The translations under genes and the position numbers were made by a program. Of a stretch of DNA of 64,000 nt, positions 13,491-37,005 are shown piece by piece; positions within the stretch are counted from its first letter, which is position 1, and each line of letters opens with the position of its first letter. The stretch comes from Bacteroidia bacterium (GTDB taxonomy: Bacteria; Bacteroidota; Bacteroidia; AKYH767-A; OLB10). The notes under the pieces are model-generated. The model worked only from the letters and a program-made list of their open reading frames with translations, was not told the DNA's origin and ran no database searches. Location: NCBI GenBank assembly GCA_016788065.1, contig JAEUTI010000026.1, forward strand, positions 2,290 through 66,289, given 5' to 3'.

Positions 13491-13494
13491 TGCG

Positions 13495-14721
13495 ATGAAA
13501 GCTGCCACATTGCACAAGTCACCGTTTAATCTAGCTGTAATTGCGGCGGGCCTGGGCTTTTTTGTAGATGCATTCGACCTGTTTCTATTCAGTATTTATC
13601 GAATTCCCAGTTTAACCGAACTTGGCTTAACAGGAGCCGCTCTCAAAGCTGAAGGTGAAAAATTATTGGCTGTTCAAATGCTTGGGATGATGATTGGTGG
13701 AATTCTTACAGGTATCATAGGTGATCGTAAAGGTCGGGTTGCGGTACTCTTCGGATCAATCTTGTTGTATTCGGCAGCTAATATTGCCAATGCTTTTGTT
13801 GGCGACACTACCAGCTATGCAATCATACGGTTTTTAGCCGGAGTGGGTTTGGCCGGGGAACTTGGAGCCGGAATAACGTTGGTAAGTGAATCTATGACCA
13901 TTGAAAGGCGTGGATACGGAACCATACTGGTTGCTACCATGGGTGCTGCCGGTGCGGTTTGTGCCGGACTTGCCGGAGATTTCCTGCCCTGGAGAACAGC
14001 TTTTTTTGTCGCCGGTGTTGCGGGTTTGTTGCTTTTGCTGCTGCGGATGAAGTCGATGGAAACAACAATGTTTAAACAAACGGAAAGCGTCAGCTCACAA
14101 CAAAAAGGGTCTTTTAAATATCTGTTTTCGGATCGGAAACGTGCACTAAAATATCTTGGATGCATATTGATGGGCGTTCCAATATGGTTTAGCGTGGGTT
14201 TACTGATTACACTATCTCCTGAATTGGCAAAAGATCATCAAATTGATGGCTGGGCATTAACAAAAGCATTTACTCTCTTTCAGATCGGAATTACTGTTGG
14301 TGATCTAAGCAGTGGAATTTTAAGCCAGCTGCTGAAGACTCGCAAAAAAGTAATTCTTGGATATATGTTAATGGCCATTGCGGCTACAGTTTATTTTTTC
14401 AGCGGATTTGAAAATTCAAACACGAATTACATTTCCTGTTTTTTGATGGGTCTCGGATGTGGTTATCTATCGGTGTTTGTAACTGCTACAGCTGAACATT
14501 TTGGAACGAACTTAAGAGTATTGGTATCAGCTACCGTAACCAATTTTATGCGGGGATCAGTAACCTTGCTGATTCCATTTCATTTGTGGCTTGAATCACA
14601 ATTTGAATTTTCACTTGCATTCAGTCTGATAATTACCGGAATACTAGTTTGGTCGCTTGCAATAACCAGTACAGTTTTGTTGAAGGAAACCTATGGCAAA
14701 GACCTGAATTATACAGAATAA
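13495..14721 (+). CDS. MFS transporter
   Basis: About 12 predicted TM helices. The loop 2-3 motif GDRKGR is present. Confidence 0.8.
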   Translation: MKAATLHKSPFNLAVIAAGLGFFVDAFDLFLFSIYRIPSLTELGLTGAALKAEGEKLLAVQMLGMMIGGILTGIIGDRKGRVAVLFGSILLYSAANIANAFVGDTTSYAIIRFLAGVGLAGELGAGITLVSESMTIERRGYGTILVATMGAAGAVCAGLAGDFLPWRTAFFVAGVAGLLLLLLRMKSMETTMFKQTESVSSQQKGSFKYLFSDRKRALKYLGCILMGVPIWFSVGLLITLSPELAKDHQIDGWALTKAFTLFQIGITVGDLSSGILSQLLKTRKKVILGYMLMAIAATVYFFSGFENSNTNYISCFLMGLGCGYLSVFVTATAEHFGTNLRVLVSATVTNFMRGSVTLLIPFHLWLESQFEFSLAFSLIITGILVWSLAITSTVLLKETYGKDLNYTE

Positions 14722-14723
14722 AG

Positions 14724-15365
14724 TTATTTGGATTTTACATATTCAAATTCTCCAAATTCTTCCCCCTTTAATACCGGATTTGAACCTTTTAACCTGTTAT
14801 CAGACAAGTTCAAAGTGAATTGTTCGAACCATACATCCATAATTTTGGGATTGAAATTGAATTCGAAATAGTTGTCTCCCGGATGTTCCGGTTCAAAAGT
14901 GTGGATCATTTCCGGACAAAGCTCAAAAAGTAATTCTATTTTTTCAGGATTCCCAAATTTGAAAACGGTTTCGCCTTCATTAGTCATTTTCTGAAAGTCG
15001 GTGGTATTGGCTCCGGAAATTAATCTTGCATACACAAAAGATGACATCATTGTATTAGGATCTTTCACAGCAACTACTTTATCGGGTGTACCATTCTTTC
15101 GGCTGGCAACCATGATGAATCCCTTATCCCTTTTTCCGTTACTGTTAAAAATTATCTGTTCACCGTTTTGTTGCCACGTGCCACTGCCTGTGCGGTCGAG
15201 TGCTCCCTGTGAAAAGAAAAACTCAAATGTATGGTCATCATTGAGTTTGAATCCCGAAGCTGTTTCCATAACATTTTCGAGATAATAGATTCCTGCAGCA
15301 GACGGCTTTTGTCCCATACAAATAGTTGAAATTAGAATGGTTATAGTTATCAGAATTAATCTCAT
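14724..15365 (-). CDS. hypothetical secreted protein
   Basis: Signal peptide MRLILITITILISTICMGQ. I recognise no other motif. Confidence 0.4.
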   Translation of the reverse strand: MRLILITITILISTICMGQKPSAAGIYYLENVMETASGFKLNDDHTFEFFFSQGALDRTGSGTWQQNGEQIIFNSNGKRDKGFIMVASRKNGTPDKVVAVKDPNTMMSSFVYARLISGANTTDFQKMTNEGETVFKFGNPEKIELLFELCPEMIHTFEPEHPGDNYFEFNFNPKIMDVWFEQFTLNLSDNRLKGSNPVLKGEEFGEFEYVKSK

Positions 15366-15428
15366 GGAAAATTAGTATTGAAGTTGCTTTACTTTTTTTG
15401 AATTACCTGATGTAAATATATCAAATAT

Positions 15429-16565
15429 TTATTTTTGTGAATACTCTTCTCTTAATTCTGTAAAAGGCTTTTCATAGTATTTGTAAAGCAAGGTTGAAAA
15501 TCCAATGACAGCTACCCAATAAACTCCATATGCAATCCAGGCACTTGTAGCATCTGCTGGCGGGAAGTTATCGCGAATAACTTCAGCTACCAGCGCCAGA
15601 TTAATGAGATACATGGAATAGGAAATCAGGCTGATGTGGGTAAAAATGCGGGTGGCTAGTACAGGGCCTTTTTTCATGCTTTCGAAAAGAGGTAGTAAAA
15701 GCATACAACCAATACTTTGAATCAAAAGCTTGAAAACCTTGGTTGAAAAATCATTTGGTTCCCAATTTGCATATAAAACGTAATAACACAAAATTACACC
15801 GGCAACAAAAGCGATTTTACGAAATTTGAACCAGATGTCGTAATGCCAGTAATGAATGAATGCCGCGAGTAATCCTAGTGCAATTCCATCAAGCCGGAAA
15901 ATTACTACTTTAAAGATTTTAACGGAAACCCAGAAGGCATCTACTTCTATTTTGGATGCAATGAATAATCTTAAAAGAAATGGTACTAACAGAAATATAG
16001 CAATTGCAGTCAGGAATAAATACTTTTTACTGACCTGAAATTGTTTCATTGCCAAAAAGACTATTCCAAGTATAACCGGAAAGAAAATATAAAACCATTC
16101 CTCAATACTCAAACTCCACGATTCCCAAAAGAAACCAACAAAATGTTGCGAGAAGTTTTGAAGGAAGAACAAAAATTTCCAGTTAAACTGCATAAAATCT
16201 TCTTTAATAATTCCTGTATAAACAAAAATTACATTGAGCAACAAAACCAGATAATAGGCAGGTAAAGTTCTGAACCATCTTCTGATCCAAAAGTTTTTAA
16301 TTGTTTTAAAATTATAATCAGCAGTGTTTTCAAAAGTTTTGATCAGAATGCCTCCAATTAAGAATCCACTGAGCACGAAAAATAGTTCCACACCATCAAT
16401 CAATTTGATCCAAGGGAAACCGGTTTCTGCTTTTTCCAGCATTAATGCATGACCGTTTACGACAAAAATAATTGCCAATGCGCGCATCAGATCCAAACCA
16501 AAAACTCTTTGAGAGTAATCGGGGTTCAGTCGAAAAATGGAAAAGATTGGTCCAAAAGGTGACAT
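15429..16565 (-). CDS. acyltransferase family 3 membrane protein
   Basis: Polytopic membrane protein. The N-terminal FGLDLMRALAIIFVVNGH pattern is typical of acyltransferase_3. Start moved from TTG 16580 to ATG 16565. Confidence 0.7.
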   Translation of the reverse strand: MSPFGPIFSIFRLNPDYSQRVFGLDLMRALAIIFVVNGHALMLEKAETGFPWIKLIDGVELFFVLSGFLIGGILIKTFENTADYNFKTIKNFWIRRWFRTLPAYYLVLLLNVIFVYTGIIKEDFMQFNWKFLFFLQNFSQHFVGFFWESWSLSIEEWFYIFFPVILGIVFLAMKQFQVSKKYLFLTAIAIFLLVPFLLRLFIASKIEVDAFWVSVKIFKVVIFRLDGIALGLLAAFIHYWHYDIWFKFRKIAFVAGVILCYYVLYANWEPNDFSTKVFKLLIQSIGCMLLLPLFESMKKGPVLATRIFTHISLISYSMYLINLALVAEVIRDNFPPADATSAWIAYGVYWVAVIGFSTLLYKYYEKPFTELREEYSQK

Positions 16566-16666
16566 TTTCAGTTGCTGCAAGCTATTGGCTTCATCCTGTT
16601 TTCAGGAATAAATTGCAGGTGGCAAAAGTAACAAAATAATGATATTTGGGAAAGTTCGGTACCTGA

Positions 16667-17725
16667 CTACCAATCCAGTTCAAGTTGCAATCCGGTTCCG
16701 GGTCTTTTGAATAGCGAATAATCGTATTCCGGGAAGGAGCGGCCATCTAAATGTTTCTTAACAGACAACTTAAAAAGCTGGCGGATGGATTCCGCAATAT
16801 GACCTTCACCACGCATCCTCATGCCAAAACGATTATCATTCACCTGGCCACCGTGGCACTCCTTGATTTGGTTCCAGATTTTGTCGGCAGCATCCGGAAA
16901 GCTTTTAAAGAGCCAATCATGAAAAATATCTTTTACAGAACCATTCAAACGAACCATGGTAAATCCTGCTGCAAGTGCTCCGGCATCGGCAGCAGCCTGA
17001 ATGAGATCAGGAATTTCATCACTGTTTAGTCCGGGAATTATAGGTGCTGTCATCACACCGGCAGGGATTCCATTTTCTGTGAGATGCTTGATCACTCCCA
17101 GACGGTTTTTGGTAGTTGCAGTCCGGGGTTCCATCAATAAGCGTAAGTCTTCACGCATACTAGTTATAGATACCATTACATGTACGAGATTGTTCTCTGC
17201 CAGTTCAGAAAGAATATCAATGTCTCGTAGAATTAGACTGTTCTTGGTGATGATGCCTACCGGATGTTTGAATTCTAAAAATACTTTCAAAAGGCTTCTG
17301 GTGATTTCCATCTTCCGCTCCAGCGGTTGATAACAGTCGGTGTTTCCGGAGAGACTTATTCGGGATGGCTTGTAGTTTTTATTTTGAAATGCTTTGCGTA
17401 ATAATTCCGGTGCAGCGGGCTTTGCAATCAGTTTTTGTTCGAAATCGATGCCGGCGCTATATCCCCAATATTGATGAACATTTCTGGCATAACAATAAAC
17501 ACATCCATGCTCACAACCTTGATACGGATTTAGTGAGAAATCGAAAGGTAAATCGGGACTCTCCGTTTTGTTGAGAATGGTTTTGGGGTGCTCCAGAAAT
17601 ACTTCAGTTTTGCCATCCAGATCAGGAAGCTCATCGATGCCTTCAAAATGCTCCAATACCCGCTCACGGGTTTCGAATCTGTTTTTCGTATTTATTTGAG
17701 CGCCACGGCCTTTAATGTATTCCAT
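16667..17725 (-). CDS. PA0069-family radical SAM protein
   Basis: CEHGCVYCYARN (CxxxCxxC cluster), an N-terminal GRGAQ.N..NRF motif, and DCYQPLER. Confidence 0.85.
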   Translation of the reverse strand: MEYIKGRGAQINTKNRFETRERVLEHFEGIDELPDLDGKTEVFLEHPKTILNKTESPDLPFDFSLNPYQGCEHGCVYCYARNVHQYWGYSAGIDFEQKLIAKPAAPELLRKAFQNKNYKPSRISLSGNTDCYQPLERKMEITRSLLKVFLEFKHPVGIITKNSLILRDIDILSELAENNLVHVMVSITSMREDLRLLMEPRTATTKNRLGVIKHLTENGIPAGVMTAPIIPGLNSDEIPDLIQAAADAGALAAGFTMVRLNGSVKDIFHDWLFKSFPDAADKIWNQIKECHGGQVNDNRFGMRMRGEGHIAESIRQLFKLSVKKHLDGRSFPEYDYSLFKRPGTGLQLELDW

Positions 17726-17812
17726 CAGAATGATTGTAATCCTGTCACACAGTAGGTTCTAAAGATAACAATATCTGAAATAAAAGAAAGGAGAAAAATA
17801 ATTTTTAATCAT

Positions 17813-17846
17813 AAAAAAAGGCTGTCGAAAATTCAACAGCCTTTTT
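17813..17846 (-). terminator. rho-independent (bidirectional-type) terminator after the ompA-family gene
   Basis: GGCTGT-N10-ACAGCC stem at 17820-17841, flanked by an A7 run (17813-17819) and a T5 run (17842-17846). Confidence 0.55.
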
Positions 17847-17863
17847 CATTCAAGCGTTAATTA

Positions 17864-19321
17864 TTAATATTCGGTTTTGAGTTCTACTCTTCTGTTTTTG
17901 GCTCTGCCATCTGCTTTTGCATTGTCGGCAATTGGTTTGCTTTCTCCAAATCCGGTAGCAGTTAAACGTGATTCCATAATTCCTTTACCCATGAGATAAG
18001 TTTTTACAGATTCCGTTCTTTTTTGTGAAAGAGTCATGTTATATGCATCTTCACCTTGGCTATCAGTATGTCCTTCAATTATTAATTTAGCGGCATCGTA
18101 TTTTTTCAGAATGGTTGCTAATTCATCTAACTGAACTGTTGATGCAACTTTTAATTTATCACTATTTAGTTCAAAAAATATTTTACTCGCAATTTGAGTG
18201 ATTTTTTTCACATCTTCTTTAGTAATTTCAGGACAACCTTTATTTGCTATATTTCCTTTTACGGTAGGGCAACGATCCTCATTATCTGCAACACCATCTC
18301 CATCAGTATCAGGACAACCTTTCATTGCAAGGTTACCTGCGAGATCCGGACATAAATCATCTTCATTAAGAATGCCATCTTTATCACTATCCATAGGACA
18401 TCCAGTTGCATCTACTTTGTACTTTGGATCAGTCCCTGCACATTTATCGTCAAGATCTGTGATGCCATCTTTATCTGTATCAGGACAACCTTTTAAAGTT
18501 GACAGTCCGGCAACATCAGGACAACTGTCTTCCTTGTCAGCTATTCCATCTCCATCAGTATCAGGGCAGCCTAATAAAGCAACTGTTCCTGCAATATCCG
18601 GACATGCATCCTGATAGTTTGCAACTCCATCTTTATCGGTATCAACCGGACATCCTTTTTTATCAACTTCTACACCTGGAGGAGTGTCTGCGCATTTATC
18701 ATTTCTGTCAGCAACACCATCTTTATCAGCATCTTTTTTTGATCCTGCATTAAAAGTTAAACCAACGGTGTGCATCAAAAATGCATCATTCGTATTTTCT
18801 TCTACCCCATCTTTATTATCATTGGTAGAATAAAGGAAAAGTTCCTGAATATTCAACATGACATTTGGACTCAGCTGAACATTAAATCCTGCACCTGCTG
18901 ATGGTACCGAATAATCGATTTTGCTTTTATCCTGTACTGTGGGATTTTCTGCAAAAAGCATCGCACCCGCTCCGGCTAAAATGTATGGGCGGAATTTGTA
19001 TTGGGGACCTAATATATTAAAACGTAAGTTCAGAGTTACAGTCGAGAATCCTGTGCGGAAGCTGACTGTATCGTTTCTGTGACCAACTTCTCCTTTTGTA
19101 AATAAAAGATTTAAATCTACGTGACTTCCTAAATAGCGCGAAAATGAAATTCCGCCAAAACCATAAAATGGAAGATCAGTTTTGTAAAACCCGTTTCCCA
19201 GATCACCGTTGTATTGTTGTGCACCCCCATGGAATCCTACATTCCATTTTTTGTCGATTGTTTGACCGGTTACAAACAACGAAGATGTAACCATGATGAA
19301 TAATAGTAGTAATTTTTTCAT
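17864..19321 (-). CDS. OmpA-family protein with thrombospondin type 3 (Ca-binding) repeats
   Basis: N-terminal barrel, about seven D.D.DG(V/I).D..D.CP repeats, and a C-terminal OmpA_C peptidoglycan-binding domain (IEGHTDSQG..YN..LSQKR). Confidence 0.85.
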   Translation of the reverse strand: MKKLLLLFIMVTSSLFVTGQTIDKKWNVGFHGGAQQYNGDLGNGFYKTDLPFYGFGGISFSRYLGSHVDLNLLFTKGEVGHRNDTVSFRTGFSTVTLNLRFNILGPQYKFRPYILAGAGAMLFAENPTVQDKSKIDYSVPSAGAGFNVQLSPNVMLNIQELFLYSTNDNKDGVEENTNDAFLMHTVGLTFNAGSKKDADKDGVADRNDKCADTPPGVEVDKKGCPVDTDKDGVANYQDACPDIAGTVALLGCPDTDGDGIADKEDSCPDVAGLSTLKGCPDTDKDGITDLDDKCAGTDPKYKVDATGCPMDSDKDGILNEDDLCPDLAGNLAMKGCPDTDGDGVADNEDRCPTVKGNIANKGCPEITKEDVKKITQIASKIFFELNSDKLKVASTVQLDELATILKKYDAAKLIIEGHTDSQGEDAYNMTLSQKRTESVKTYLMGKGIMESRLTATGFGESKPIADNAKADGRAKNRRVELKTEY

Positions 19322-21692: not shown

Positions 21693-21902
21693 ATGGAAAT
21701 ACCGGTACAACAATTGGCTCCGTTGCTGAAGAGTAGGCGTAAGGATTTGAAAATCAAACAAGAGGATCTATCTGAGACCACAGGAGTTGCCTTACGGACC
21801 ATTCGGGATTTAGAAAAGGGATTAGGAAATCCGTCGCTACATACCCTGGAAAAAGTCATGCAGGTTTTAGGGATTGAACTTATTTTCAGACTTCGCAAAT
21901 GA
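21693..21902 (+). CDS. XRE-family helix-turn-helix protein (HipB-like antitoxin candidate)
   Basis: 69 aa with the HTH_XRE pattern (LKSRRKDLKIKQEDLSETTGVALRTIRDLEKG). Its stop overlaps the next ATG (ATGA at 21899-21902). Confidence 0.8.
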   Translation: MEIPVQQLAPLLKSRRKDLKIKQEDLSETTGVALRTIRDLEKGLGNPSLHTLEKVMQVLGIELIFRLRK

Positions 21903-22882
21903 ACCGTACTTTATACAATACGCCGCGTTGTCCGGGTTCTTTAAAAGATGGTTTCAACTCTTATAATCCGGGTACTTTACGAACCTTGTTCGACAGCCGG
22001 AAAGTTTTTCATGTTATTGAGGGGAATTCCGACACAGTATCCTGGCAGAAAGCAAGAATCGATGGTGAGCAATTTGGCGGACAACAATGGTATCGGGTAG
22101 CACTAAATAAAAATAAACCGGAACCGCATCCTGCAGGAAATTATATTTTAAAAATTGTTCCGGATGATACTGATTCGGTGAAGTTTCCATTTGAGCAGGC
22201 AGGCAATGAACATTTTTGTCTGCAACTTGCCAAACAGGTTTATGGAATTGATACCGTTCCCAATGCGATGATATTTTTTGAAAACGGACAACCCGCAATA
22301 ATTGCCCGTTATTCTGATAATTTTCCGTTTCCGGAAGATGAAATAATTGATTTCAGTCAATTGATTAATCAGAATGAAACGCAACCGTTTATTGATAAAG
22401 AAAAATTTTCTTATTTTGATCTGGTTACTGTAATCAACGAAAATGTAGCAGCCTCATTGATTGGAAAGGAAAGATTTTTTACTAATATTTTATTCAGCTG
22501 GCTGGTTGCTAACGGCCATGCATATATGAAAAATATCAGACTTCGGAAAACTTCTTTAGGAGACTATACCTTTTTTCCATTAGCAGATATTTTATGTACT
22601 CGTGTTCATGCAATAGGGCCTGAAATTGCCGCTCCCGGTGGATTGTATCAGGGAGATAAAAATACTCCGGAGTTTCGGGAATATGGTCACTACACACGAA
22701 ATGAGTTTACCAATTTTGCCTTGCGATTGGGAATAAACCGAAAGCGATCCGATAAAATTATGGATCATTTGGTAGCAGGAAGAAATGAAGCAGGTAAATT
22801 ACTCGATCAGGCATTTGTTCCTGAAGAAGTGAAAAATATTATTCGCTATTATTTTAATGAAAGACTGATGCGTTTGAAGTAG
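21899..22882 (+). CDS. HipA-like protein with non-canonical catalytic residues
   Basis: Collinear with short Bacteroidota HipA proteins (NYILK..., GIDTVPNAMIFFENGQPAIIARYSD, FSWLVANGHAYMKNIRL, FPLADIL). The catalytic-loop Asp is replaced by His. Confidence 0.7.
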   Translation: MNRTLYNTPRCPGSLKDGFNSYNPGTLRTLFDSRKVFHVIEGNSDTVSWQKARIDGEQFGGQQWYRVALNKNKPEPHPAGNYILKIVPDDTDSVKFPFEQAGNEHFCLQLAKQVYGIDTVPNAMIFFENGQPAIIARYSDNFPFPEDEIIDFSQLINQNETQPFIDKEKFSYFDLVTVINENVAASLIGKERFFTNILFSWLVANGHAYMKNIRLRKTSLGDYTFFPLADILCTRVHAIGPEIAAPGGLYQGDKNTPEFREYGHYTRNEFTNFALRLGINRKRSDKIMDHLVAGRNEAGKLLDQAFVPEEVKNIIRYYFNERLMRLK

Positions 22883-26827: not shown

Positions 26828-27189
26828 AAAACGTGAAAACGACCATTACTATTGGAGGCATTGAGTGCTATGCCTTTCACGGTTGCATGGAAGAAGAAGG
26901 AAAGATCGGAAGTCGTTATTTGGTTGATGTTCAAATAGATAAGAATGTTGAGCAAGCTGTATTTAACGACGAACTGAACGACACCGTCGATTATGTAGTT
27001 GTAAATAAGATAGTTAAGGAACAAATGGCGATTCGTTCTAAATTAATTGAACATGTTGCCGGTCGAATTTTGAAAGAATTGAGCAGACTGATTCCAGGGG
27101 AGAAGGCTATAGAGGTGAAAATCACCAAGTTTAATCCCCCTGTAAATGGAAACATGCATCATGCGAGTTTCACAATCAAAGAAGGTTAA
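26824..27189 (+). CDS. folB: dihydroneopterin aldolase
   Basis: FHG..EEE..G pattern, D.L.DTVDY, and the KFNPP tail. Its start overlaps the glnS stop (ATGA). Confidence 0.85.
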
Positions 27190-27360
27190 AATTAAATTTG
27201 TTGATTCACGCAACAAAGCTGACTGATTGTAGTAATAAGGAGCAAATCAAATTTCCATTATCGTTTTTTGATTTAAATTGTTAAATTTGCACTTCCAAAA
27301 AATGATCCGGACAGCAAATCCGGGATAGTTAAAAAAATCATTTTTGCGAATTTAAAATAA

Positions 27361-27431
27361 GGTCGCGTGGCCGAGTGGTTAGGCAGAGGTCTGCAAAACC
27401 TTGTACAGCAGTTCAAATCTGCTCGCGACCT
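27361..27431 (+). tRNA. tRNA-Cys (GCA)
   Basis: Hand-folded cloverleaf. Acceptor stem GGTCGCG/CGCGACC. Anticodon stem GAGGT/ACCTT with loop CTGCAAA. T arm AGCAG-TTCAAAT-CTGCT. Discriminator is U73 (a CysRS identity element). CCA is not encoded. Confidence 0.9.
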
Positions 27432-27433
27432 CG
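27418..27433 (+). repeat. att-like direct repeat, copy 1 (3' end of tRNA-Cys)
   Basis: TCTGCTCGCGACCTCG is identical to 36408-36423. Confidence 0.85.
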
Positions 27434-27435
27434 AA

Positions 27436-27465
27436 GGAGCTGGAAAATTTTCCAGCTCCTTTTTT
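27436..27465 (+). terminator. rho-independent terminator after tRNA-Cys
   Basis: Perfect hairpin GGAGCTGGAAAA/TTTTCCAGCTCC followed by T6. Confidence 0.7.
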
Positions 27466-27700
27466 ATGGATTTGAATACGAGTGAATTACATCTGATTTT
27501 CGAGTATTTATGAATCTTTAAAATAGGATTTTGAACCCAAATCACTGCTTTCTCAAGTCATTGATTATCAGACATCAAAAATTTGATTTTTTTAAAAAGG
27601 CTCAATATGTTTCACCTTTTGTTTCACCTTGAAGAGAAAATTCCTAATTTCGGCATCTTAGAACAACTGTCTCAAAATTACGTTACAGTTGTTAGTTGAT

Positions 27701-28027
27701 ATGAAAAAAATCAAATCCGCCTTTATTTTCTTTTTTGCCTGGTACATGCTCTCCATGGTTTTCATTCCATGTGCTGACATTTGTGCCGAGGATTTACATG
27801 AAGTGGTGTCTTCTATGAATTCCGCTCAGGAACATCATCAGGAGCATTCGGATTTATGTTCTCCATTTTGCTCTTGTTCCTGTTGTTCTTCACAGATTAC
27901 ATTTGCTCATTTTCAGTCATTGGAAATTATCAAGAATGATTATGTCAGAAGTTTTGTTTCATTAAATCAGGTTTTTCTTCCTTCCATTTACTTTTCAATT
28001 TGGCAACCGCCAAAACTCGCTTTATAG
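27701..28027 (+). CDS. Cys/His-rich small membrane protein (resembles the family I recall as DUF6660)
   Basis: N-terminal TM helix, then PCADIC, EHHQEHSDLCSPFCSCSCCS and a C-terminal WQPPK. First gene of the czc-like operon. Start at ATG 27701. Confidence 0.55.
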   Translation: MKKIKSAFIFFFAWYMLSMVFIPCADICAEDLHEVVSSMNSAQEHHQEHSDLCSPFCSCSCCSSQITFAHFQSLEIIKNDYVRSFVSLNQVFLPSIYFSIWQPPKLAL

Positions 28028-28123
28028 ATTTCAAAATGTCCTTTTTCTAAGGACTGTTTAAATTCTATGTCAATGCTATGCATTGGCCGGTTTTCTATTT
28101 TAATCTATTCAACAACTAATTTA

Positions 28124-31100
28124 ATGTTAGACAAAATAATTGCGTTCAGTATAAATAATAAGTTCATCATTGGGTTGATGACACTTGCACTCATTGTTTG
28201 GGGGGCATGGAGCGCATCTAAACTACCCATTGATGCACTTCCTGATATAACAAACAATCAGGTTCAGATAATAACCCTTTGCCCTACACTTGCTGGCCAG
28301 GAAGTGGAACAATTGGTCACCTACCCTATTGAACAAAGCATTGCCAACTTGCCAGACGTGGTAGAGTTACGAAGCATTTCTCGATTCGGACTTTCGGTTG
28401 TTACAGTGGTATTTGAGGACAAGGTCGACATCTATTTTGCAAGGCAGCTTGTTAATGAAAAACTGAAGGAAGCTGAGGAAAAAATTCCAAGAGGAATTGG
28501 TACGCCCGAATTGGCTCCTGTAAGTACGGGATTAGGAGAAGTGTACCAATATATAATACATCCAAAAAAGGGAAGCGAAAGCAAATATACTGCTATGGAC
28601 CTTCGAACCATGCAGGACTGGATTGTGGCCCGGCAGCTGTATGGTACTCCGGGAATTGCTGAGGTGAACAGTTTTGGTGGTCAGCTCAAACAGTATGAAG
28701 TCGCAGTGAATCCCGACAGGCTTGTGGCAATGGGTATTTCTATTCCGGAAATATTCACTGCTCTTGAAAGGAATAATGAAAATACCGGAGGTGCCTATAT
28801 TGATAAAAAACCCAATGCCTATTTTATAAGGGGGGTTGGATTGATAGGCTCCTTTGAGGATATCAAAAGAATTGCTGTTAAAAATAATCCAAATGGCATC
28901 CCTATTCTTATTGGTGACGTGGCTGAAGTTCGGTTTGGAAGTGCTGTCAGGTATGGAGCCTTGACGTATAATGGACAGGTTGATGCCGTTGGAGGTGTGG
29001 TGATGATGCTCAAAGGGTCAAACAGCGCTGATGTGGTAAATCGTGTCAAGGAAAAGATGAATACGATTAAAGCATCGTTACCTGATGATGTTGTTATAGA
29101 GCCGTATCTTGATAGAACAGACCTGGTTAATCGCGCTATTTCCACCGTTGAAAAGAATCTTCTTGAAGGTGCTCTGATTGTGATTTTTGTACTGGTGTTG
29201 TTTTTGGGAAATCTTCGTGCCGGGCTTATAGTTGCATCTGCGATTCCACTATCCATGCTATTTGCCCTTGGAATGATGAATCTGTTTGGTGTGAGTGCGA
29301 ATCTCATGAGTTTAGGAGCAATTGATTTTGGACTCATAGTAGACGGAGCTGTAATTATTGTGGAGAGCATTTTTCACCGAATCACGACAAGCCGATTGAA
29401 AGACAACAGGACTGAACTATCTACGGAGGAAATGAATGAAACCGTTTTGGATAGTGCTAAAAGAATGATGAAGTCCGCTGCTTTTGGACAAATGATAATT
29501 CTGATTGTTTACTTACCAATATTATCACTTGTTGGAATTGAAGGCAAAATGTTTGGTCCAATGGCGCAAACTGTATCATTTGCCATTCTTGGTGCTTTTA
29601 TTCTTTCACTTACATATATTCCCATGGTATCAGCTCTTTTCCTTAGCAGAAAGATAGCACACAAAATCAATATTTCAGATAAAATGATGATGAAAATCCA
29701 GGCAGTATATTTGCCATTGCTGCAAAAAGCTATTGCTGCAAGGAAAATCGTCATTGGAACAACTGCGGTAGTTTTTATTTTCACTGTAGTGCTGTTTGCA
29801 AGAATGGGAGGTGAATTTATACCTACTTTAACAGAAGGTGATTTCGCATTTCATTGTATTCTTCCGCAAGGAACATCCTTATCTCAGAGCATAGAAACAT
29901 CAATGCAGGCATCAAGAATTGTAAAACAATTTGACGAAGTAAAGATGATTGTAGGCAGAACCGGAAGTGCTGAGGTACCTACTGACCCAATGCCTCCTGA
30001 AGCAACGGATTTAATGATAATATTAAAGCAGCCGGATGAATGGAAACGTGATATAACGTATGAGGAACTGGCTCAAGAAATTATAGAAGAACTTGAAGTG
30101 ATACCAGGAGTATTTTTTGAGAAAAGCCAACCCATTCAAATGCGATTTAATGAACTTATGACCGGAATCCGGCAGGATGTTGCAATTAAAATATTTGGTG
30201 AAAACATGGACACCTTGCTGTTTTACGCCAATAAAGTAAATGAGTCTATCAGCAGTGTAGAAGGAATAACACAACCCAGTGTTGAAAGGGTATCCGGATT
30301 GCCACAGATTGTTATTAATTATAACAGGTCGCAAATTGCAAATTATGGACTTGCCATTGAGGACATCAATCATATTGTAAGTACCGCATTTGCAGGAGGT
30401 GATGCAGGTGTTGTTTTTGAAAATGAGAGAAAATTTGATTTGGTTGTTCGATTAGACAGCACACACAGAAATAATATTGAAGATGTGAGTCATTTGTTCA
30501 TTCCAACATCTGGAGGAAATCAAATTCCGCTATCACAAATTGCAGATATTAAGTTGGAGTTAGGGCCGGCCCAGATAAGCCGCGAAGACGGGAAACGCAG
30601 AATCGTAGTCGGGTTTAATGTGAAAGGCAGGGATGTTGAAAGCGTAGTAAAAGAAATGCAAAGTATGTTGGCGAACAAAGTTAAACTACCGGAAGGTTAT
30701 TATTTTACATATGGCGGCACGTTTGAAAACCTGCAGGCGGCTTCTGCCCGTTTAATGATTGCTGTCCCGGTTGCACTTGCTCTTATTTTCATTTTGCTCT
30801 ACTTCACATTCACTTCTGTCAGCCAGGCAGTAGTGATATTTACCGCAATTCCTATGGCCGCAATTGGCGGAGTGTTCGCGCTTCTGGTGAGGGATATGCC
30901 ATTCAGCATATCAGCAGGAGTAGGATTTATTGCCTTGTTTGGAGTGGCAGTGTTAAATGGTATTGTATTGATTAGTACATTCAATCAGCTGCAAAAAGAT
31001 GGTGTTTCTGATATGATAACAAGAATTATGGAAGGAACAAAAATTCGACTTCGTCCGGTATTGATGACTGCTGCGGTTGCTTCATTAGGATTTCTGCCGA

Positions 31101-32491
31101 TGGCACTTTCACATGGAGCAGGGGCGGAAGTTCAGCGACCATTGGCAACTGTAGTTATCGGAGGTTTGATTTCTGCAACCTTCCTGACACTTTTTGTTTT
31201 ACCATTGCTTTACCTGGTATTTTCGCCAAAGAGGGTATCAACTTCGAACAAAACAATTGTAGGATTAATCTTTGTCATTATTTCAGGATTTGCAAGCTAC
31301 GATTCAAATGCACAAACTGCTTCCAGAATATTAAGTGTGGAAGACGCTATAAAAATAGCGCTTGACAGTAATTTGAATATTAAGGTCTCAAAACTTAATA
31401 TGGAGGCAAGTCAAAAGCTCAAAAAATCTTTCTTTGAATTACCCAAAACTGAAGTGAGTTACCAGTATGGACAGTTCAACAGCAACAATAAGGATAACAG
31501 TATTGAGATTTCCCAGGATATTCCGTTTCCTACATACTATGGTGCTCAGTCAGGGCTGTTGAACGCACAGGTGCGGGGCAGTACATTAGATTACAAAGCC
31601 TCCGAAAATGAATTAAAGGGACTTGTGCAGGAAAACTACTTTCAATTGCAATATCTTTTATTGGCCAAAAAAAATGTAAGACAATTGGATAGTTTGTATG
31701 ATGAATTTGTTCGGGTTGCAACATTGAGATACAATTCAGGTGAAACCAATTTGCTTGAGAAAATATCAGCTGAAACAAAGCGCAGTGAAATATCTATACA
31801 ACTTTCAAGAATGGAAAGCGAGTATTTCGCTGCGTATAATGCTCTCAAAACCTTACTTAACATATCATTTGATTTCGAGGTGAGTGCATCATTTGAGCCC
31901 TTGCAATTATTGTCAGGTATTGATTCTTCAGCAGTACTTCAAAATCCAAACTTGTTAAAATATTATCAGGAAGCTGAAGTCGCAGATAGATACGCCAAGT
32001 TGGAAATTGCTCAAGCATTACCTGATATTAAGTTGGGATATTTTAATCAATCAATAATCGGCTTACAAAGCATCAATGGAAGTGAGACTTACTTTGACTC
32101 TGGCGACCGATTCACCGGTTTTAGCCTCGGACTCAATATTCCTTTAACATTTTTTAGTAATTCATCAAAGGCAAATTCATACAAATTACAAAGAGATGCA
32201 TTAGAACTGGCTGGTGAAAACAACAAGCGAATGTTGCAAAATCAGCTTGAGCGGTCATTACAAAATTATGGTTCCAGTGTATTGCAATACGAAATGTATA
32301 AAGAGGCTTCCTCAAATTACATTGAATCCTTAATTAGTACAGCAACGCTTGGTTTTAAGAATGGCGAAATTGGCTATATGGAGTATATCAATGCCCTTGA
32401 AACAGCTGCTAACATAAAGATAAAGTACTTGCAATCTATTAATCAAATCAATCAATCTATTGTTCAAATTAACTTGTTAATCAGTAAATAA
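28124..32491 (+). CDS. CzcA/CusA-type heavy-metal RND efflux pump fused in frame to a TolC-like outer-membrane factor
   Basis: The first ~1040 aa form a typical HME-RND pump (12 TM, large periplasmic loops). A hydrophobic signal-like segment follows (31250-31315, KTIVGLIFVIISGFASYDSNAQ). The last ~390 aa are an OMF (LSVEDAIKIALDSNLNIK and coiled repeats). No stop or frameshift separates the parts. Confidence 0.88.
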   Translation: MLDKIIAFSINNKFIIGLMTLALIVWGAWSASKLPIDALPDITNNQVQIITLCPTLAGQEVEQLVTYPIEQSIANLPDVVELRSISRFGLSVVTVVFEDKVDIYFARQLVNEKLKEAEEKIPRGIGTPELAPVSTGLGEVYQYIIHPKKGSESKYTAMDLRTMQDWIVARQLYGTPGIAEVNSFGGQLKQYEVAVNPDRLVAMGISIPEIFTALERNNENTGGAYIDKKPNAYFIRGVGLIGSFEDIKRIAVKNNPNGIPILIGDVAEVRFGSAVRYGALTYNGQVDAVGGVVMMLKGSNSADVVNRVKEKMNTIKASLPDDVVIEPYLDRTDLVNRAISTVEKNLLEGALIVIFVLVLFLGNLRAGLIVASAIPLSMLFALGMMNLFGVSANLMSLGAIDFGLIVDGAVIIVESIFHRITTSRLKDNRTELSTEEMNETVLDSAKRMMKSAAFGQMIILIVYLPILSLVGIEGKMFGPMAQTVSFAILGAFILSLTYIPMVSALFLSRKIAHKINISDKMMMKIQAVYLPLLQKAIAARKIVIGTTAVVFIFTVVLFARMGGEFIPTLTEGDFAFHCILPQGTSLSQSIETSMQASRIVKQFDEVKMIVGRTGSAEVPTDPMPPEATDLMIILKQPDEWKRDITYEELAQEIIEELEVIPGVFFEKSQPIQMRFNELMTGIRQDVAIKIFGENMDTLLFYANKVNESISSVEGITQPSVERVSGLPQIVINYNRSQIANYGLAIEDINHIVSTAFAGGDAGVVFENERKFDLVVRLDSTHRNNIEDVSHLFIPTSGGNQIPLSQIADIKLELGPAQISREDGKRRIVVGFNVKGRDVESVVKEMQSMLANKVKLPEGYYFTYGGTFENLQAASARLMIAVPVALALIFILLYFTFTSVSQAVVIFTAIPMAAIGGVFALLVRDMPFSISAGVGFIALFGVAVLNGIVLISTFNQLQKDGVSDMITRIMEGTKIRLRPVLMTAAVASLGFLPMALSHGAGAEVQRPLATVVIGGLISATFLTLFVLPLLYLVFSPKRVSTSNKTIVGLIFVIISGFASYDSNAQTASRILSVEDAIKIALDSNLNIKVSKLNMEASQKLKKSFFELPKTEVSYQYGQFNSNNKDNSIEISQDIPFPTYYGAQSGLLNAQVRGSTLDYKASENELKGLVQENYFQLQYLLLAKKNVRQLDSLYDEFVRVATLRYNSGETNLLEKISAETKRSEISIQLSRMESEYFAAYNALKTLLNISFDFEVSASFEPLQLLSGIDSSAVLQNPNLLKYYQEAEVADRYAKLEIAQALPDIKLGYFNQSIIGLQSINGSETYFDSGDRFTGFSLGLNIPLTFFSNSSKANSYKLQRDALELAGENNKRMLQNQLERSLQNYGSSVLQYEMYKEASSNYIESLISTATLGFKNGEIGYMEYINALETAANIKIKYLQSINQINQSIVQINLLISK

Positions 32492-32493
32492 AC

Positions 32494-33900
32494 ATGCAAA
32501 CCATGAAATTACATAAATATATATCACCCATGTTTCAACTAAATAATTATCCTGTATTTTTTGGAATGATTTTAAATTTCTTTGTACTGTCGGGTTGTTC
32601 TGAAAAATCTGCAAGTAATGCAGGAGAAGCAGAACATGGACATGAGGAAGAAGGTGTGCATGAGAATGCCTTGACAGCTTCTCTTACTGCAGCACAGATA
32701 AAGAGCATTGGAATTGTTTTGGGCAATATTGAAAAAAAGCAATTGACCGCTTCGCTCAGAGCAAATGGACTGTTAAAGGTTCCGAATCAGAATCGTGCAA
32801 CCATTTCAACCATGGCTGATGGTGTTGTAAAGTCGATTTTAGTTCAGCCGGGAAATTCTGTTCGCATCGGACAGATTATAGCCACCTTATCCGGAACTTC
32901 TATCATTGCAATGCAGGAAGAGTATCTCGCGGTTAGTGCCAGGGTGCTGTTATCTGAGTCAGATTTTTATCGCCAGCAGGAATTACAAAAAGGTAATGCA
33001 ACGTCTGCTAAAGTTTATCAACAGTCCGAGGCTGACCTGAAATCGCTCAAAGCGCGAAAATCAGGACTGCAAAAGCAATTGGAATTGGTTGGTATCAGTG
33101 TTAATGAATTGACAAGTGAAAATTTTCAATCCAGCGTCAATATTACCAGTCCGATAAACGGTGTAGTTAGTGATGTTTTAGTCAACATAGGAAGTTTTGT
33201 CGAAGCGAATAATCCAATCGCCACAATTGTGGATAATTCTCAGCTTCACCTTGATTTGTATGTGTATGAGAAGGATTTATCAAAACTCAAAGAAGGTCAG
33301 ACTATTCATTTTACACTAACAAATAACCCCGGAAAAGAATATGATGCAAAGATTTATGCCATAAGCAACACATTTGAATCAAATTCAAAAGCTGTATCTG
33401 TACACGCACAGGTTTTGGGTGATAAATCCGGTTTAATTGATGGAATGAGTATAACTGCAATAGTGAGCTTAAGCGAAACAGCCGTTGATGCAGTTCCAAC
33501 GGAATCGATTGTTAGTTTTGAAGGACAGGATTTTATTTTCGTAGTTTCTGATGCTCATAATGAAGAAGAACATCATGGTGATGGGGATGGGCATAATCAC
33601 GACGAACATGGGCACGAACACAAAGACTCAGAAATTTCTGATAAAAAAATGACACATGAACATGAAGACGGTGAATCGCATGCTGAACATAGCGATTCAG
33701 AAGAAGTGCATGAAACTAATGTAACTTCTGCCGGCATGCTCACTTTTGAACGGATTCCTGTGGCCAAAGGCACAACCGATATTGGCTACTCGGAAATTAC
33801 TTTATTGAAGGATATTCCGGCGAATGCCCAAATAGTTACAAAAGGTGCATTTTTCGTGCTGGGTAAAATGACCAATGCTGGTGAAGGTCATGAGCATTGA
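32494..33900 (+). CDS. RND efflux periplasmic adaptor (CzcB/CusB-like) lipoprotein with His-rich segments
   Basis: Lipobox LSGC, HlyD/MFP-type barrel-sandwich and coiled-coil pattern. His-rich stretches at the N-terminus, at 33556-33714, and in the C-terminal GEGHEH. Confidence 0.85.
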   Translation: MQTMKLHKYISPMFQLNNYPVFFGMILNFFVLSGCSEKSASNAGEAEHGHEEEGVHENALTASLTAAQIKSIGIVLGNIEKKQLTASLRANGLLKVPNQNRATISTMADGVVKSILVQPGNSVRIGQIIATLSGTSIIAMQEEYLAVSARVLLSESDFYRQQELQKGNATSAKVYQQSEADLKSLKARKSGLQKQLELVGISVNELTSENFQSSVNITSPINGVVSDVLVNIGSFVEANNPIATIVDNSQLHLDLYVYEKDLSKLKEGQTIHFTLTNNPGKEYDAKIYAISNTFESNSKAVSVHAQVLGDKSGLIDGMSITAIVSLSETAVDAVPTESIVSFEGQDFIFVVSDAHNEEEHHGDGDGHNHDEHGHEHKDSEISDKKMTHEHEDGESHAEHSDSEEVHETNVTSAGMLTFERIPVAKGTTDIGYSEITLLKDIPANAQIVTKGAFFVLGKMTNAGEGHEH

Positions 33901-33929
33901 AAATTAATGAATTACATTCAAATTGACTC

Positions 33930-34295
33930 ATGAAGTTGAATACATTGATGCCAAAGGCATTAGAAGCATTCTATAACCTGGAATTATCAAATGCCGAAGC
34001 CGCTTTTAAGATGAAGCACTATCAACAGAGCTGGAGACATCTTGAGCGCGCGCATATTTTAGGCCAGCCATATCCGATAGCCCATTCAATGGTGCATTGG
34101 AGAATGCTTCTTTTCGGCATTAAAACAAAAAACATTTCTGAAATTATCGGGCAAATTCCCCGACTCCTATTTGGAGGAGTAAAATCGTTTGTTGGAAAAA
34201 TACCAGTTGGAAATACCGGAGGAGCCAATGTTCCTCCATTGAAGCCTATGGATATTCCAGACGATTTGATACAAATAATTAATAATTATAAATAA
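33930..34295 (+). CDS. DUF3703-family protein
   Basis: W.HLERAHILGQ...H..ML.....GQ..R......GK.PVGNTGGANVP pattern as I recall for DUF3703. Confidence 0.65.
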   Translation: MKLNTLMPKALEAFYNLELSNAEAAFKMKHYQQSWRHLERAHILGQPYPIAHSMVHWRMLLFGIKTKNISEIIGQIPRLLFGGVKSFVGKIPVGNTGGANVPPLKPMDIPDDLIQIINNYK

Positions 34296-36181
34296 TGAGA
34301 CTTCCTCTTAAAGACAAGAAATTTATTTTTCTGTTAGTGGCAATTTTGGTAGTTGTTACACTTGAAATATTTTCCATTTTTGGAATTGATATGCCAATGC
34401 CATATGCACCTTTCATTTATGTTGCTTTTATATTGGCAATTGGACATAAAGTTATTTGGAATGGCTTTCAGGCACTATTTAGGTTGAATTTCAGCAGCAT
34501 CAACTTATTAATGGTTATTGCTGTTGTTGGAGCGTTTTATCTGGGAGAATACCCTGAGGCTGCGGTTGTAATTGTTTTATATGTATTAGGTGAACGCCTG
34601 GAAGATATAGGAATAGCAAATAGTAAGTCAGCATTGGATGATTTGGTTTCAAAATCTCCTAAAACAGCTTTCATTAAAGCATCTGGAATTGATGTCCCAA
34701 TTGATAAGATTGAGATAGGCACAATTATTCAGGTTAAACCTCATGATATGATTCCGCTTGATGGAATTATTGAATACGGCGAATCCGCAGTTGATGAAGC
34801 TGCAATCACCGGTGAACCTATACCTAAAGATAAGCACAAGGGAGATTTGGTTTTTGCCGGTACACTTAACAAAAGTGGTTTTATTGAAATCAAGACCACT
34901 AAACTTTCCACTGACACTACTTTTTCCAAAATAATAAAATTAACATTTGAGGTCAGTGCGAATAAAAGTAAAACGCAAAAGTTTATTCAACAATTTGCCA
35001 AAATATATACTCCTTCAGTTATAGTTTTAGCTGCATTGTTATTTGTAGTACCTGTTTTCTTGTTAAATAAAGATATGAATCACTGGCTTGAACAGGCTAT
35101 TACCTTATTAGTAATTGCTTGTCCATGTGCGCTTGTTATATCAACACCGGTAGCTATCTATGCAGCTATTGGAAATGCCTCTTCAAAAGGAGTATTAATT
35201 AAAGGTGGGAAATATTTGGAATTATTGGCGGGTGTTAACGCAATATGTCTTGATAAAACAAGGACTATTACATTTGGTAATCCTGTGGTTTCAGATGTAA
35301 TTCCTCTCAATGGGACCAGTCGAGAAGAATTATTGGCATGTGCAGCAGGTGCTGAAGTATTTAGCGAGCACCCGCTTGCACAGGCCATTGTAGATGCTGC
35401 AAAAAATGCAGGATATAAAATTCATGCTGCCGAAAAATTCGAAAGCATTATAGGCAAAGGAGCTATAGCAAAATGTCTTGTTTGTGAGGATGAAACAATT
35501 CTCATAGGAAAGCTTCAATTTATTGGCGAAAGCCAGCCCATCACCAACGATGCCGAACAAATAGTCAAAAAACTCTCTGAGCAAGGCAAAACAAGTGTCG
35601 TAGTAAGTTTTGGAAATGGGGTTGCAGGAATTATTGGCTTAATGGATGAAATTAAACCAGATAGTGCCGAGGCCATCAAGGAATTCAGGATTATGGGAAT
35701 TGAACCGATTATGTTAACCGGGGATAGCATTTTATCAGCCAACTATGTTGCAGATATTGTTCACATTAAAGAAATATTTGGAGGCCTTCTTCCTGAAGAT
35801 AAAGCAGCTCGAATCAAAGAATCCATTTTAAAATATAAAAGCGTTGCAATGGTAGGAGATGGAATCAATGATGCGCCCGCCTTAGCTCAATCAACTGTTG
35901 GTATAGCCATGGGAGCCGCAGGCAGTGATACTGCTATTGAAACCGCTAACATCGCTTTAATGAACGATAAACTGTCGCTCATTCCTTTTCTTATACGATT
36001 ATCCAAATCAACATTATTCAGAATAAAAATGAATACCATCGGAGCTATATCAATCAAGGTGCTCTTTATATTATTGGCATTCATGGGATATGGAAATTTG
36101 GTGATGGCTATTGCAGCTGATGTGGGCGTTACCTTGATTGTGATATTGATAAGTCTGAACTTAATGAAGTTTGAATCTTAA
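34295..36181 (+). CDS. heavy-metal (Zn/Cd/Co-type) P1B-type ATPase lacking an N-terminal metal-binding domain
   Basis: TGEP, CPC (35120-35128), SEHPL, TGD and GDGINDAPAL are all present. The phosphorylation motif reads DKTRT (35252-35266). The start overlaps the upstream stop (TAATG). Confidence 0.9.
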   Translation: MRLPLKDKKFIFLLVAILVVVTLEIFSIFGIDMPMPYAPFIYVAFILAIGHKVIWNGFQALFRLNFSSINLLMVIAVVGAFYLGEYPEAAVVIVLYVLGERLEDIGIANSKSALDDLVSKSPKTAFIKASGIDVPIDKIEIGTIIQVKPHDMIPLDGIIEYGESAVDEAAITGEPIPKDKHKGDLVFAGTLNKSGFIEIKTTKLSTDTTFSKIIKLTFEVSANKSKTQKFIQQFAKIYTPSVIVLAALLFVVPVFLLNKDMNHWLEQAITLLVIACPCALVISTPVAIYAAIGNASSKGVLIKGGKYLELLAGVNAICLDKTRTITFGNPVVSDVIPLNGTSREELLACAAGAEVFSEHPLAQAIVDAAKNAGYKIHAAEKFESIIGKGAIAKCLVCEDETILIGKLQFIGESQPITNDAEQIVKKLSEQGKTSVVVSFGNGVAGIIGLMDEIKPDSAEAIKEFRIMGIEPIMLTGDSILSANYVADIVHIKEIFGGLLPEDKAARIKESILKYKSVAMVGDGINDAPALAQSTVGIAMGAAGSDTAIETANIALMNDKLSLIPFLIRLSKSTLFRIKMNTIGAISIKVLFILLAFMGYGNLVMAIAADVGVTLIVILISLNLMKFES

Positions 36182-36407
36182 ATTTTTAATGGAAAAGTGC
36201 AAAATATTTCGTATCTTCACGGTAATGGAAAATTTTAGTTCAAGTCTGCCATTTGGAAAGAAATCAAAATCAGTTTTGGCATCCAAAGGACCTTTTTCTC
36301 AAAATACCGGTACAGAAGTGCATATCGCTTCACCTGGCGCTTCACCGCTCATACTCGGTTCCATGTACTAATCGCCAAATCAATAACTTATGCAAGGTTG
36401 TCCGGAG

Positions 36408-36423
36408 TCTGCTCGCGACCTCG
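36408..36423 (+). repeat. att-like direct repeat, copy 2 (displaced tRNA-Cys 3' end)
   Basis: TCTGCTCGCGACCTCG is identical to 27418-27433. The 5' flank (TGCAAGGTTGT) loosely resembles the tRNA anticodon/variable region. Confidence 0.8.
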
Positions 36424-36430
36424 GTTAGAA

Positions 36431-36463
36431 AAAGCCGTTTCAACTTTGTTGAAACGGCTTTTT
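36431..36463 (+). terminator. rho-independent terminator immediately after the tRNA 3' remnant
   Basis: AGCCGTTTCAAC-TTTG-TTGAAACGGCT stem-loop followed by a T run, with an A run upstream. Confidence 0.6.
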
Positions 36464-36465
36464 CG

Positions 36466-36607
36466 TTGACTTGGTCGCTATGCTCCCTGTTAAGTTGGTC
36501 GCTATGCTCCCTGTTAAGTTGGTCGCTTCGCTCCGGTGTTTTATTTGGTTCGCTTTGCTCACTGTGTTTGAGTGGTTCGCTTCGGCGCTAGAGTTGGTTG
36601 GTTTCCC
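36466..36607. repeat. degenerate tandem repeat array (5-6 units of 24-28 bp, core TTGGT(C/T)CGCT)
   Basis: TTGACTTGGTCGCTATGCTCCCTG / TTAAGTTGGTCGCTATGCTCCCTG / TTAAGTTGGTCGCTTCGCTCCGGTG / TTTTATTTGGTTCGCTTTGCTCACTGTG / TTTGAGTGGTTCGCTTCGGCGCTAGAG / TTGGTTGGTTTCCC. Confidence 0.85.
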
Positions 36608-36654
36608 ATTTTGACTTCAAGTTGTTAATTTTACATTAGAAGAATTTAGTAACC

Positions 36655-37005
36655 ATGGACAACTCAAGAATCTACAAAATGTCTTTTGCAGGAGTATATC
36701 CGATGTATATTCAGAAAGCTGAGAAAAAGGGACGGACCAAAGAGGAAGTTGATGCTATTATTTTCTGGCTTACTGGATACAACGAAAAATCGCTGCAAAA
36801 ACAAATCGATAAGAAAACCAATTTTGAAACCTTTTTTGCCGAAGCACCCCAACTTAACCCGAATGTTTCCAAAATAACCGGTGTTATTTGTGGTTATCGT
36901 GTTGAAGAAATTGAAGATAAACTGGTGCAGAAAGTCAGGTACCTTGATAAGTTGATTGATGAACTGGCGAAAGGCAAAACCATGGAAAAGATTTTGAGGA
37001 GCTGA
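36655..37005 (+). CDS. DUF2200-family protein
   Basis: Strong match to the family pattern I recall ([27 protein letters not shown]...LTGY...[14 protein letters not shown]...[21 protein letters not shown]). Confidence 0.75.

Follow-up and report, generated by a model that had tools for sequence, protein, structure and literature searches.

An integrase-less metal-efflux islet at a tRNA-Cys integration hotspot in a Bacteroidia bacterium, probably moved by a borrowed integrase

NBU1 integrates at the 3′ end of a tRNA-Leu gene via a 14-bp common core, and NBU2 integrates into a tRNA-Ser gene. Elements without an integrase of their own include the integrative mobile elements exploiting Xer (IMEX), which use the host XerCD recombinases at dif. 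In cis-mobilizable elements (CIMEs) of Streptococcus thermophilus and other Firmicutes, the integration and transfer genes are lost and attL and attR are kept (Guedon et al. 2017, PMC5704250). Cassette arrays lacking an integrase and mobilised in trans (CALINs) have been described as well, together with a broader class of helper-dependent ‘hitcher’ elements, which is matched by the locus studied here (PMC11389934). Here we analyse a 64,000-nt stretch of contig JAEUTI010000026.1 (GCA_016788065.1, positions 2,290-66,289; hereafter the window, in which all coordinates are given) from a Bacteroidia bacterium, where a 9-kb islet of metal-efflux genes lies between an intact tRNA-Cys gene and a second copy of the tRNA 3′ end. 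In our judgment the best explanation, and a likely one, is a helper-dependent, CIME-like islet at tRNA-Cys which moves with an integrase supplied in trans or by accretion, and the integrase is probably borrowed from neighbouring mobile islands. Integrase-less islands are numerous and usually dismissed as decayed relics; as a natural experiment this islet is unusually complete, with empty sites in two lineages, three integrase-bearing islands at the same site, arm sites conserved at both ends, and the same islet in two distant Bacteroidota hosts.

Among these systems the CIMEs are close to the islet, which carries adaptive cargo (five genes only) between an attL and an attR at its target gene's 3′ end and has no integration or transfer genes; the att site is shared with related elements of the species that do have an integrase. 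Within the roughly 10 kb seen of each, those potential helper islands carry the same TTCACC dyad as the islet. Unlike the CIMEs described, the islet resides in the Bacteroidota and targets tRNA-Cys, no mobilisation of it by accretion was seen, and its integrase-less form in two distant hosts points to repeated transfer and not just to local decay. Integron cassettes and CALINs are likewise recombinase-less cargo between recombination sites, with the integrase encoded elsewhere and different cargos exchanged at one chromosomal hotspot; the islet differs in that its 9 kb form a multi-gene operon located at a tRNA gene and not at attI, with attP-type arms in place of attC hairpins, and in the integrase family concerned. 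With NBU1, NBU2 and CTnDOT it shares the Bacteroidota host, the use of tRNA 3′ ends and a short core of 13-16 bp, and the candidate helper integrases share their typical Arm-DNA-bind_5 / SAM_5 / Phage_integrase architecture, but NBUs have their own integrase and mobilisation genes and the islet has neither. IMEX elements also integrate site-specifically without an encoded recombinase; they use dif and housekeeping Xer proteins, whereas the islet targets a tRNA gene and its helper is likely the integrase of a mobile element.

A preliminary description of this DNA had placed an intact tRNA-Cys gene at the left end of the islet, with a 16-mer from its 3′ end recurring in the same orientation 8990 bp downstream and a different terminator behind each copy. 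ARAGORN, Rfam, exact search and RNA folding recovered all of these features, as follows.

27361..27432, + strand: intact tRNA-Cys(GCA) (ARAGORN; Rfam tRNA match 27361-27431, 62 bits)
27418..27433, + strand: attL core, proximal copy of the repeat TCTGCTCGCGACCTCG (exact match)
27434..27467, + strand: element-borne hairpin terminator AAGGAGCTGGAAAA / TTTTCCAGCTCCTT with T-run (perfect 14-nt inverted repeat)
36408..36423, + strand: attR core, distal copy of TCTGCTCGCGACCTCG (exact match)
36428..36464, + strand: native tRNA-Cys terminator in the chromosomal attB flank (perfect 17-nt inverted repeat)

The repeat TCTGCTCGCGACCTCG spans the last base of the T-loop, the 3′ strands of the T-stem and the acceptor stem, the discriminator and 2 more nt. 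It occurs exactly twice in 64 kb, both times on the + strand and 8990 nt apart, and none of 100 shuffled sequences contained a match, in agreement with the earlier estimate that a chance recurrence in 64 kb is highly improbable. At up to 2 mismatches there is no third or degenerate att copy and no tandem island in the window. The match at the distal copy is limited to these 16 nt, with unrelated sequence upstream and no longer tRNA remnant. A direct repeat of a tRNA 3′ end with the intact gene at one side is the arrangement found in tRNA-borne islands. The two terminator hairpins differ in sequence, and both fold far better than shuffled controls (27433-27462, −21.3 kcal/mol, z −5.6, followed by a T-run; 36423-36471, −26.8 kcal/mol, z −7.8). 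Homology with conspecific strains bearing other islands stops at 27432, and homology with L081, L088, L089 and L116 begins at the distal copy of the repeat (L-numbers denote the loci and contigs compared with the window; L088, GCA_016706985.1; L089, GCA_016711545.1; L108, GCA_031546785.1). The distal 16-nt copy is the original tRNA-Cys 3′ end, now displaced; the present 3′ end of the gene, on the attL side, is supplied by the element, and the element-borne hairpin at 27434-27467 now terminates the tRNA.

Empty sites were found in relatives of the window host. In L088 and L089, whose GlnS is 97-98% identical to that of the window, tRNA-Cys is directly followed by GACCTCAGTTAGAAAAAGCCGTTTCAAC, the terminator that stands 3′ of the distal repeat in the window, and then by the same 24-nt tandem array. 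The order in L089 is tRNA-Cys, terminator, 24-nt tandem repeats and the DUF2200 gene, which is the empty site that the preliminary description had predicted (tRNA-Cys, the terminator at 36424-36463, DUF2200). The same junction is present in the sister species L116-118 (86% GlnS identity), where tRNA-Cys and the same terminator stem are followed by the type IX secretion system (T9SS), response-regulator and histidine-kinase genes of the right flank of the window. Moreover, the complete chromosome L114, which belongs to a bacterium related to the L108 host described below, has a matching empty site at tRNA-Cys, and empty attB sites are available for both host lineages (L089, L088 and L116-118 for the window, L114 for L108). 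In L114, positions 12200-12520 hold the tRNA-Cys followed by two copies of a ∼110-nt repeat with hairpin-forming segments. Two further loci, L028 and L001, were rejected as strict empty sites, as they share glnS-folB-tRNA-Cys with the window and their downstream genes differ; a 1476-aa open reading frame (ORF) in L028, similar in size to the pump fusion of the islet, is unrelated in sequence.

Other DNA occupies the same site in other strains. Three other islands lie directly 3′ of tRNA-Cys in strains whose GlnS is identical to that of the window or differs by one residue. Each starts with a tyrosine integrase on the minus strand, and pairwise identity among the three integrases is 60-64%. They have 445 aa in the L082-84 island (Arm-DNA-bind_5 / Phage_int_SAM_5 / Phage_integrase, followed by BT4734-like, kinase-AAA and HSP70-like genes), 381 aa in the L090 island, and 318 aa in the L092 island, which also carries IS21 and GmrSD genes. 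Metagenome contig L081 shares the right flank of the window, beginning with the 16-mer; on the left side of its repeat stands unrelated DNA with a protein-kinase gene, and the tRNA-like identity reaches 20 nt. L085 provides one more left junction at the tRNA end. The point at which L081, L082-84 and L085 cease to match the window is exactly the repeat or the tRNA end, and the DNA inside is different. The tRNA-Cys site is an integration hotspot. The cargo of the integrase-bearing islands (L082 12370-21665, L092 12329-21665, L090 3283-12659; ∼10 kb of each seen) is defence-like or mobile, with kinase-AAA and HSP70-like genes, GmrSD, an IS21-family element and BT4734-like primase-type proteins.

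Just inside each end of the islet we found a direct dyad of the hexamer TTCACC.

27608..27630, + strand: left (P′) arm dyad TGTTTCACCTTT TGTTTCACCTT, in full TGTTTCACCTTTTGTTTCACCTT (TRF; exact TTCACC-N6-TTCACC at 27611-27628)
36285..36407, + strand: right (P) arm module, with dyad GCTTCACCTGGCGCTTCACC at 36326-36346 (exact motif match)

These are the only two matches to TTCACC-N6-TTCACC in 64 kb, both on the + strand, and none of 100 shuffles gave a match. The left dyad aligns with the dyads of the integrase-bearing islands, and the right module shares 84% identity with two other right ends, that of the L108 islet and that of an insertion in L088. All islands have a common tRNA-proximal layout, consisting of the core, one or two hairpins and two or three direct (T)TTCACC(T) copies at 12-nt spacing, and each island at tRNA-Cys carries its own hairpin. 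A slightly relaxed form of the dyad is the sole match in each occupied locus and always lies at the element end (left arms in L082, L084, L085, L090, L091, L092 and L095; right arms in L081 and L088), and it has no match in L089, L028 or L001, which were tested as empty-site loci. We regard the TTCACC dyads as candidate arm-type sites, to which the local integrases would bind through their Arm-DNA-bind_5 domain. Four independent Logan islet contigs (L097, L099, L100 and L101) all end at window position 36313, ∼30 nt into the right-arm module; the shared end suggests a branch in the assembly graph, at which the same right arm is joined to other DNA in those metagenomes.

Locus L108 carries a related 12-kb islet between its tRNA-Cys and a second CTGCTCGCGACC, with two extra genes, homologous left and right arms, and no integrase. 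The proteins of the two islets are closely similar (RND, i.e. resistance-nodulation-division, pump 92%, ATPase 85%, adaptor 78%), in contrast to those of the two hosts (C-terminus of GlnS 68%, FolB 59%). At the DNA level the islet is 83%, the right arm 84% and the flank 65% identical; the non-coding right arm (84%) compares with 76-83% for coding DNA. The junction from the left arm to the DUF6660 gene is collinear in both islets. The simplest reading of these alignments is that the integrase was lost before the islet spread between the window and L108 lineages, and spread after that loss would need a recombinase in trans or transfer in cis by accretion. Since the flanks are only 65% identical, homologous recombination is ruled out as the route to the L108 host. 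In Logan, the islet is 100% identical on the 10 contigs retrieved, from ten sequencing runs (SRR21396296, ERR4450748 and SRR32046553 among them), and 14 contigs carry the adaptor protein.

The search for recombination and transfer genes in the islet was negative. The statement in the preliminary description that the interval holds no integrase was borne out by Pfam and NCBIfam searches of the islet ORFs, by tblastn of a conspecific-island integrase against the whole window (E>3) and by a hidden Markov model (HMM) built from the three local integrases, which had no match among six-frame ORFs of the whole window. L108, L088 and L081 also gave no integrase by tblastn and HMM search. An integrase next to the tRNA-proximal end, which is typical of tRNA islands and present in the sibling islands at tRNA-Cys, is missing from the islet. 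Pfam and NCBIfam scans of the islet gave no relaxase or type IV secretion system domains.

Based on this organisation we propose the following mechanism. The islet (27434-36423, 8990 bp) was inserted into the 3′ end of tRNA-Cys by a tyrosine recombinase. In the circular form, attP would comprise the right arm 36285-36407, the 16-nt core and the left arm from 27434 to ∼27660, with a junction predicted to read CAAGGTTGTCCGGAG-TCTGCTCGCGACCTCG-AAGGAGCTGGAAAA. Recombination of attP with attB regenerated an intact tRNA with the terminator of the element, while the 3′ end that the gene had before, together with the terminator behind it, came to lie 9 kb further downstream. A tRNA-Cys-specific integrase of the sibling-island family could excise and re-integrate the islet in trans, and the restored attB would read tRNA ...GTTCAAA-TCTGCTCGCGACCTC-GGTTAGAAAAAGCC. 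Alternatively, an incoming island could integrate in tandem, with its right end joined via the core to AAGGAGCTGG; the outer att sites would then recombine, and both elements would leave together.

Site-specific insertion of the islet into tRNA-Cys, and with it a foreign origin, is essentially certain. The comparison with L108 shows, in addition, that the integrase-less architecture has spread horizontally between distant hosts. What the preliminary description had named as counter-evidence was not encountered: the 16-mer is not a common repeat, empty sites exist, and the cassette is far more conserved than the core flanks between the two hosts. It had left the choice between a stranded relic and an element moved in trans; the data favour mobilisation in trans, because arm dyads are present at both ends, tRNA-Cys integrases occur in conspecifics, and the same architecture is found in a distant host. 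That the islet can still be mobilised today we hold to be rather probable, as a deduction from its sites and from the potential helpers.

Several observations weigh against mobilisation by a helper. No integrase occurs within the 64 kb window. A third left-arm site, ATTTCGGCAT at ∼27646-27655, is degenerate compared with ATTTCACCGT in L108, and the left arm has ∼85-95 extra nt between core and dyad relative to the integrase-bearing islands, which could impair recombination. Neither a circular junction, a tandem (accreted) form nor a restored attB of the same strain was present in the retrieved contigs, and one scan of viral contigs gave no left junction. No relaxase or oriT was identified in the islet, a single widespread strain could equally account for the 100% identity between samples, and the GC content of the islet (0.383) is that of its flanks (0.386) and uninformative on foreign origin. 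The composition comparison that the preliminary description had proposed thus gave no GC deviation; in its tetranucleotide part, the islet is the most deviant 9 kb block of the window (L1 distance 0.146; 38 background blocks, mean 0.100, sd 0.015, maximum 0.1415), a modest deviation that could partly reflect the codon content of membrane proteins.

The missing integrase, the degenerate site with atypical spacing and the unobserved excised and tandem forms are also what speaks for a stranded relic, in which the integrase module was lost, the islet became fixed, and spread was only vertical or by homologous recombination in the flanks; decay of integrative and conjugative or integrative and mobilizable elements is, moreover, the standard origin of CIMEs (PMC5704250). 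Set against this reading, the same integrase-less architecture stands in a host with 68% GlnS identity while the cargo is 78-92% identical, so that the islet moved after the loss of its integrase or the identical loss happened twice. Conservation is no lower in the non-coding right arm than in the coding DNA, and the divergence of the flanks excludes homologous recombination for that transfer. We therefore regard a stranded relic as unlikely, though it deserves to be kept in view. An ancestral core operon, always at tRNA-Cys and deleted in the relatives, with the 16-mer arising by chance or local duplication, would agree with the GC content and with the related cassette at the same position in L108, but is very improbable, given that empty sites in two separate lineages join the tRNA precisely to the post-repeat sequence, that the 92% identity of the RND pump is far above those of GlnS and FolB, that integrase-bearing islands use the same junction, and that the 16-mer is not expected by chance. 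Equally improbable is an autonomous islet with an unrecognised recombinase (DUF3703, DUF6660 or a small unannotated ORF), for which two cassette proteins of unknown function and a 66-aa ORF (36171-36371) overlapping the right end could be adduced, but DUF6660 is a Cys/His-rich membrane-type peptide, DUF3703 occurs with czc genes on unrelated plasmids, neither resembles a recombinase in Pfam or NCBIfam, and the att and arm organisation is that of the classical tyrosine-integrase islands at the same site.

The helper-dependent reading extends the known concept of CIMEs and hitcher elements and calls for no new mechanism. It supports hitcher islands as real vehicles of metal-resistance genes in wastewater Bacteroidota, and it supplies components for testing, i.e. 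the candidate arm site TTCACC-N6-TTCACC, the 16-nt core and three candidate helper integrases. One and the same right-arm module accompanies metal-efflux genes in the window and L108 and M78/HTH genes in L088. Tentatively, and with less than even confidence, recombinase-less cargo modules with a minimal attP (16-nt core plus TTCACC-dyad arms) may form a family that includes the islet, swapped in trans at a tRNA-Cys hotspot and moved across genera by diverse Bacteroidota tyrosine integrases; such a family, if true, would resemble in function the cassette economy of integrons, with a tRNA gene as its site.

The cargo consists of five co-directional genes. Pfam and NCBIfam assignments agree with the cassette content given in the preliminary description.

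27689..28027, + strand: DUF6660 small Cys/His-rich protein (Pfam PF20365, 1.2e-9; translation; likely ATG at 27701)
28067..32491, + strand: CusA/CzcA-family heavy-metal RND pump fused to a C-terminal OEP (outer-membrane factor) domain, 1474 aa
32494..33900, + strand: CzcB/CusB-type periplasmic adaptor (Pfam HlyD_D23; TIGR01730)
33930..34295, + strand: DUF3703 protein (Pfam PF12487, 4e-44)
34295..36181, + strand: heavy-metal (Zn/Cd/Pb-type) P1B ATPase (TIGR01525, 545 bits, cut-off 346; TIGR01512)

The fusion protein matches Pfam ACR_tran and OEP, and TIGR00914 at 1197 bits (cut-off 701). An RND permease, a CzcB-type adaptor, an outer-membrane factor and a heavy-metal P-type ATPase, the parts of Czc/Cus-type systems, are all present, and the cargo is a predicted single co-directional metal efflux operon of the Zn/Cd/Co type. 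The translation of the DUF6660 gene is a membrane-type peptide rich in Cys and His, and DUF3703 is found beside czc genes on unrelated plasmids. An Rfam scan of 27000-37000 returned the tRNA only and no metal riboswitch in the left arm. The plasmid collection contained only distant czcA homologues (≤69% DNA identity) and no plasmid-borne copy of the islet. In the metagenome-assembled genome (MAG) ADurb.Bin397, a separate contig of 2.9 kb encodes another CzcB-like adaptor (P0163; 74% identity, 75% query coverage), so the species has at least one other czc-type system.

Next to the site, outside the islet, the chromosome carries a tandem array.

36465..36584, + strand: 24-nt tandem-repeat array, unit TTGGTCGCTATGCTCCCTGTTAAG (TRF), at the chromosomal site

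It directly follows the native tRNA-Cys terminator, and its copy number varies between strains, with ∼4-5 units in the window, ∼11 in L081 (2564-2834) and ∼5-6 in L088 (12320-12464) and L089 (12321-12457). In a sister species the corresponding position is taken by analogous arrays built from different units (L116, 8433-8673). Within the units, the stretches TCTGCTC / TATGCTC or CTCGCG are similar to the att core, and one possibility is that the units serve as secondary att or landing sites. In L088 a second integrase-less insertion of ∼5.6 kb (12465-18130), coding for a 634-aa ORF, Peptidase_M78, HTH_3 and DUF2188, lies inside the array. Its right 90 nt, including the TTCACC dyad, show the 84% identity to the window right arm given above and abut a further repeat unit, GTCGCTCTGCTCCCTG; at its left end no left arm is recognisable.

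As to the host, the window and ‘Bacteroidetes bacterium ADurb.Bin397’ share a 100% identical GlnS, and the nearest representatives of the genome collection in a GlnS scan were only 76-81% identical. The genes 5′ of the islet are gltX, glnS and folB (Pfam), the core genes that had been named from the start, and those 3′ of it are DUF2200 followed by T9SS-tail proteins (Pfam); an exact-protein look-up of the DUF2200 protein returned no record. A HipA_C-domain kinase gene (21899-22882 and upstream) stands 5′ of gltX and is conserved in relatives, and its pairing with an HTH_3 gene in related loci makes a toxin-antitoxin pair likely. Further downstream, positions 49544-49616 of the window hold 10.4 tandem copies of the 7-nt unit CTTAATC (TRF score 118).

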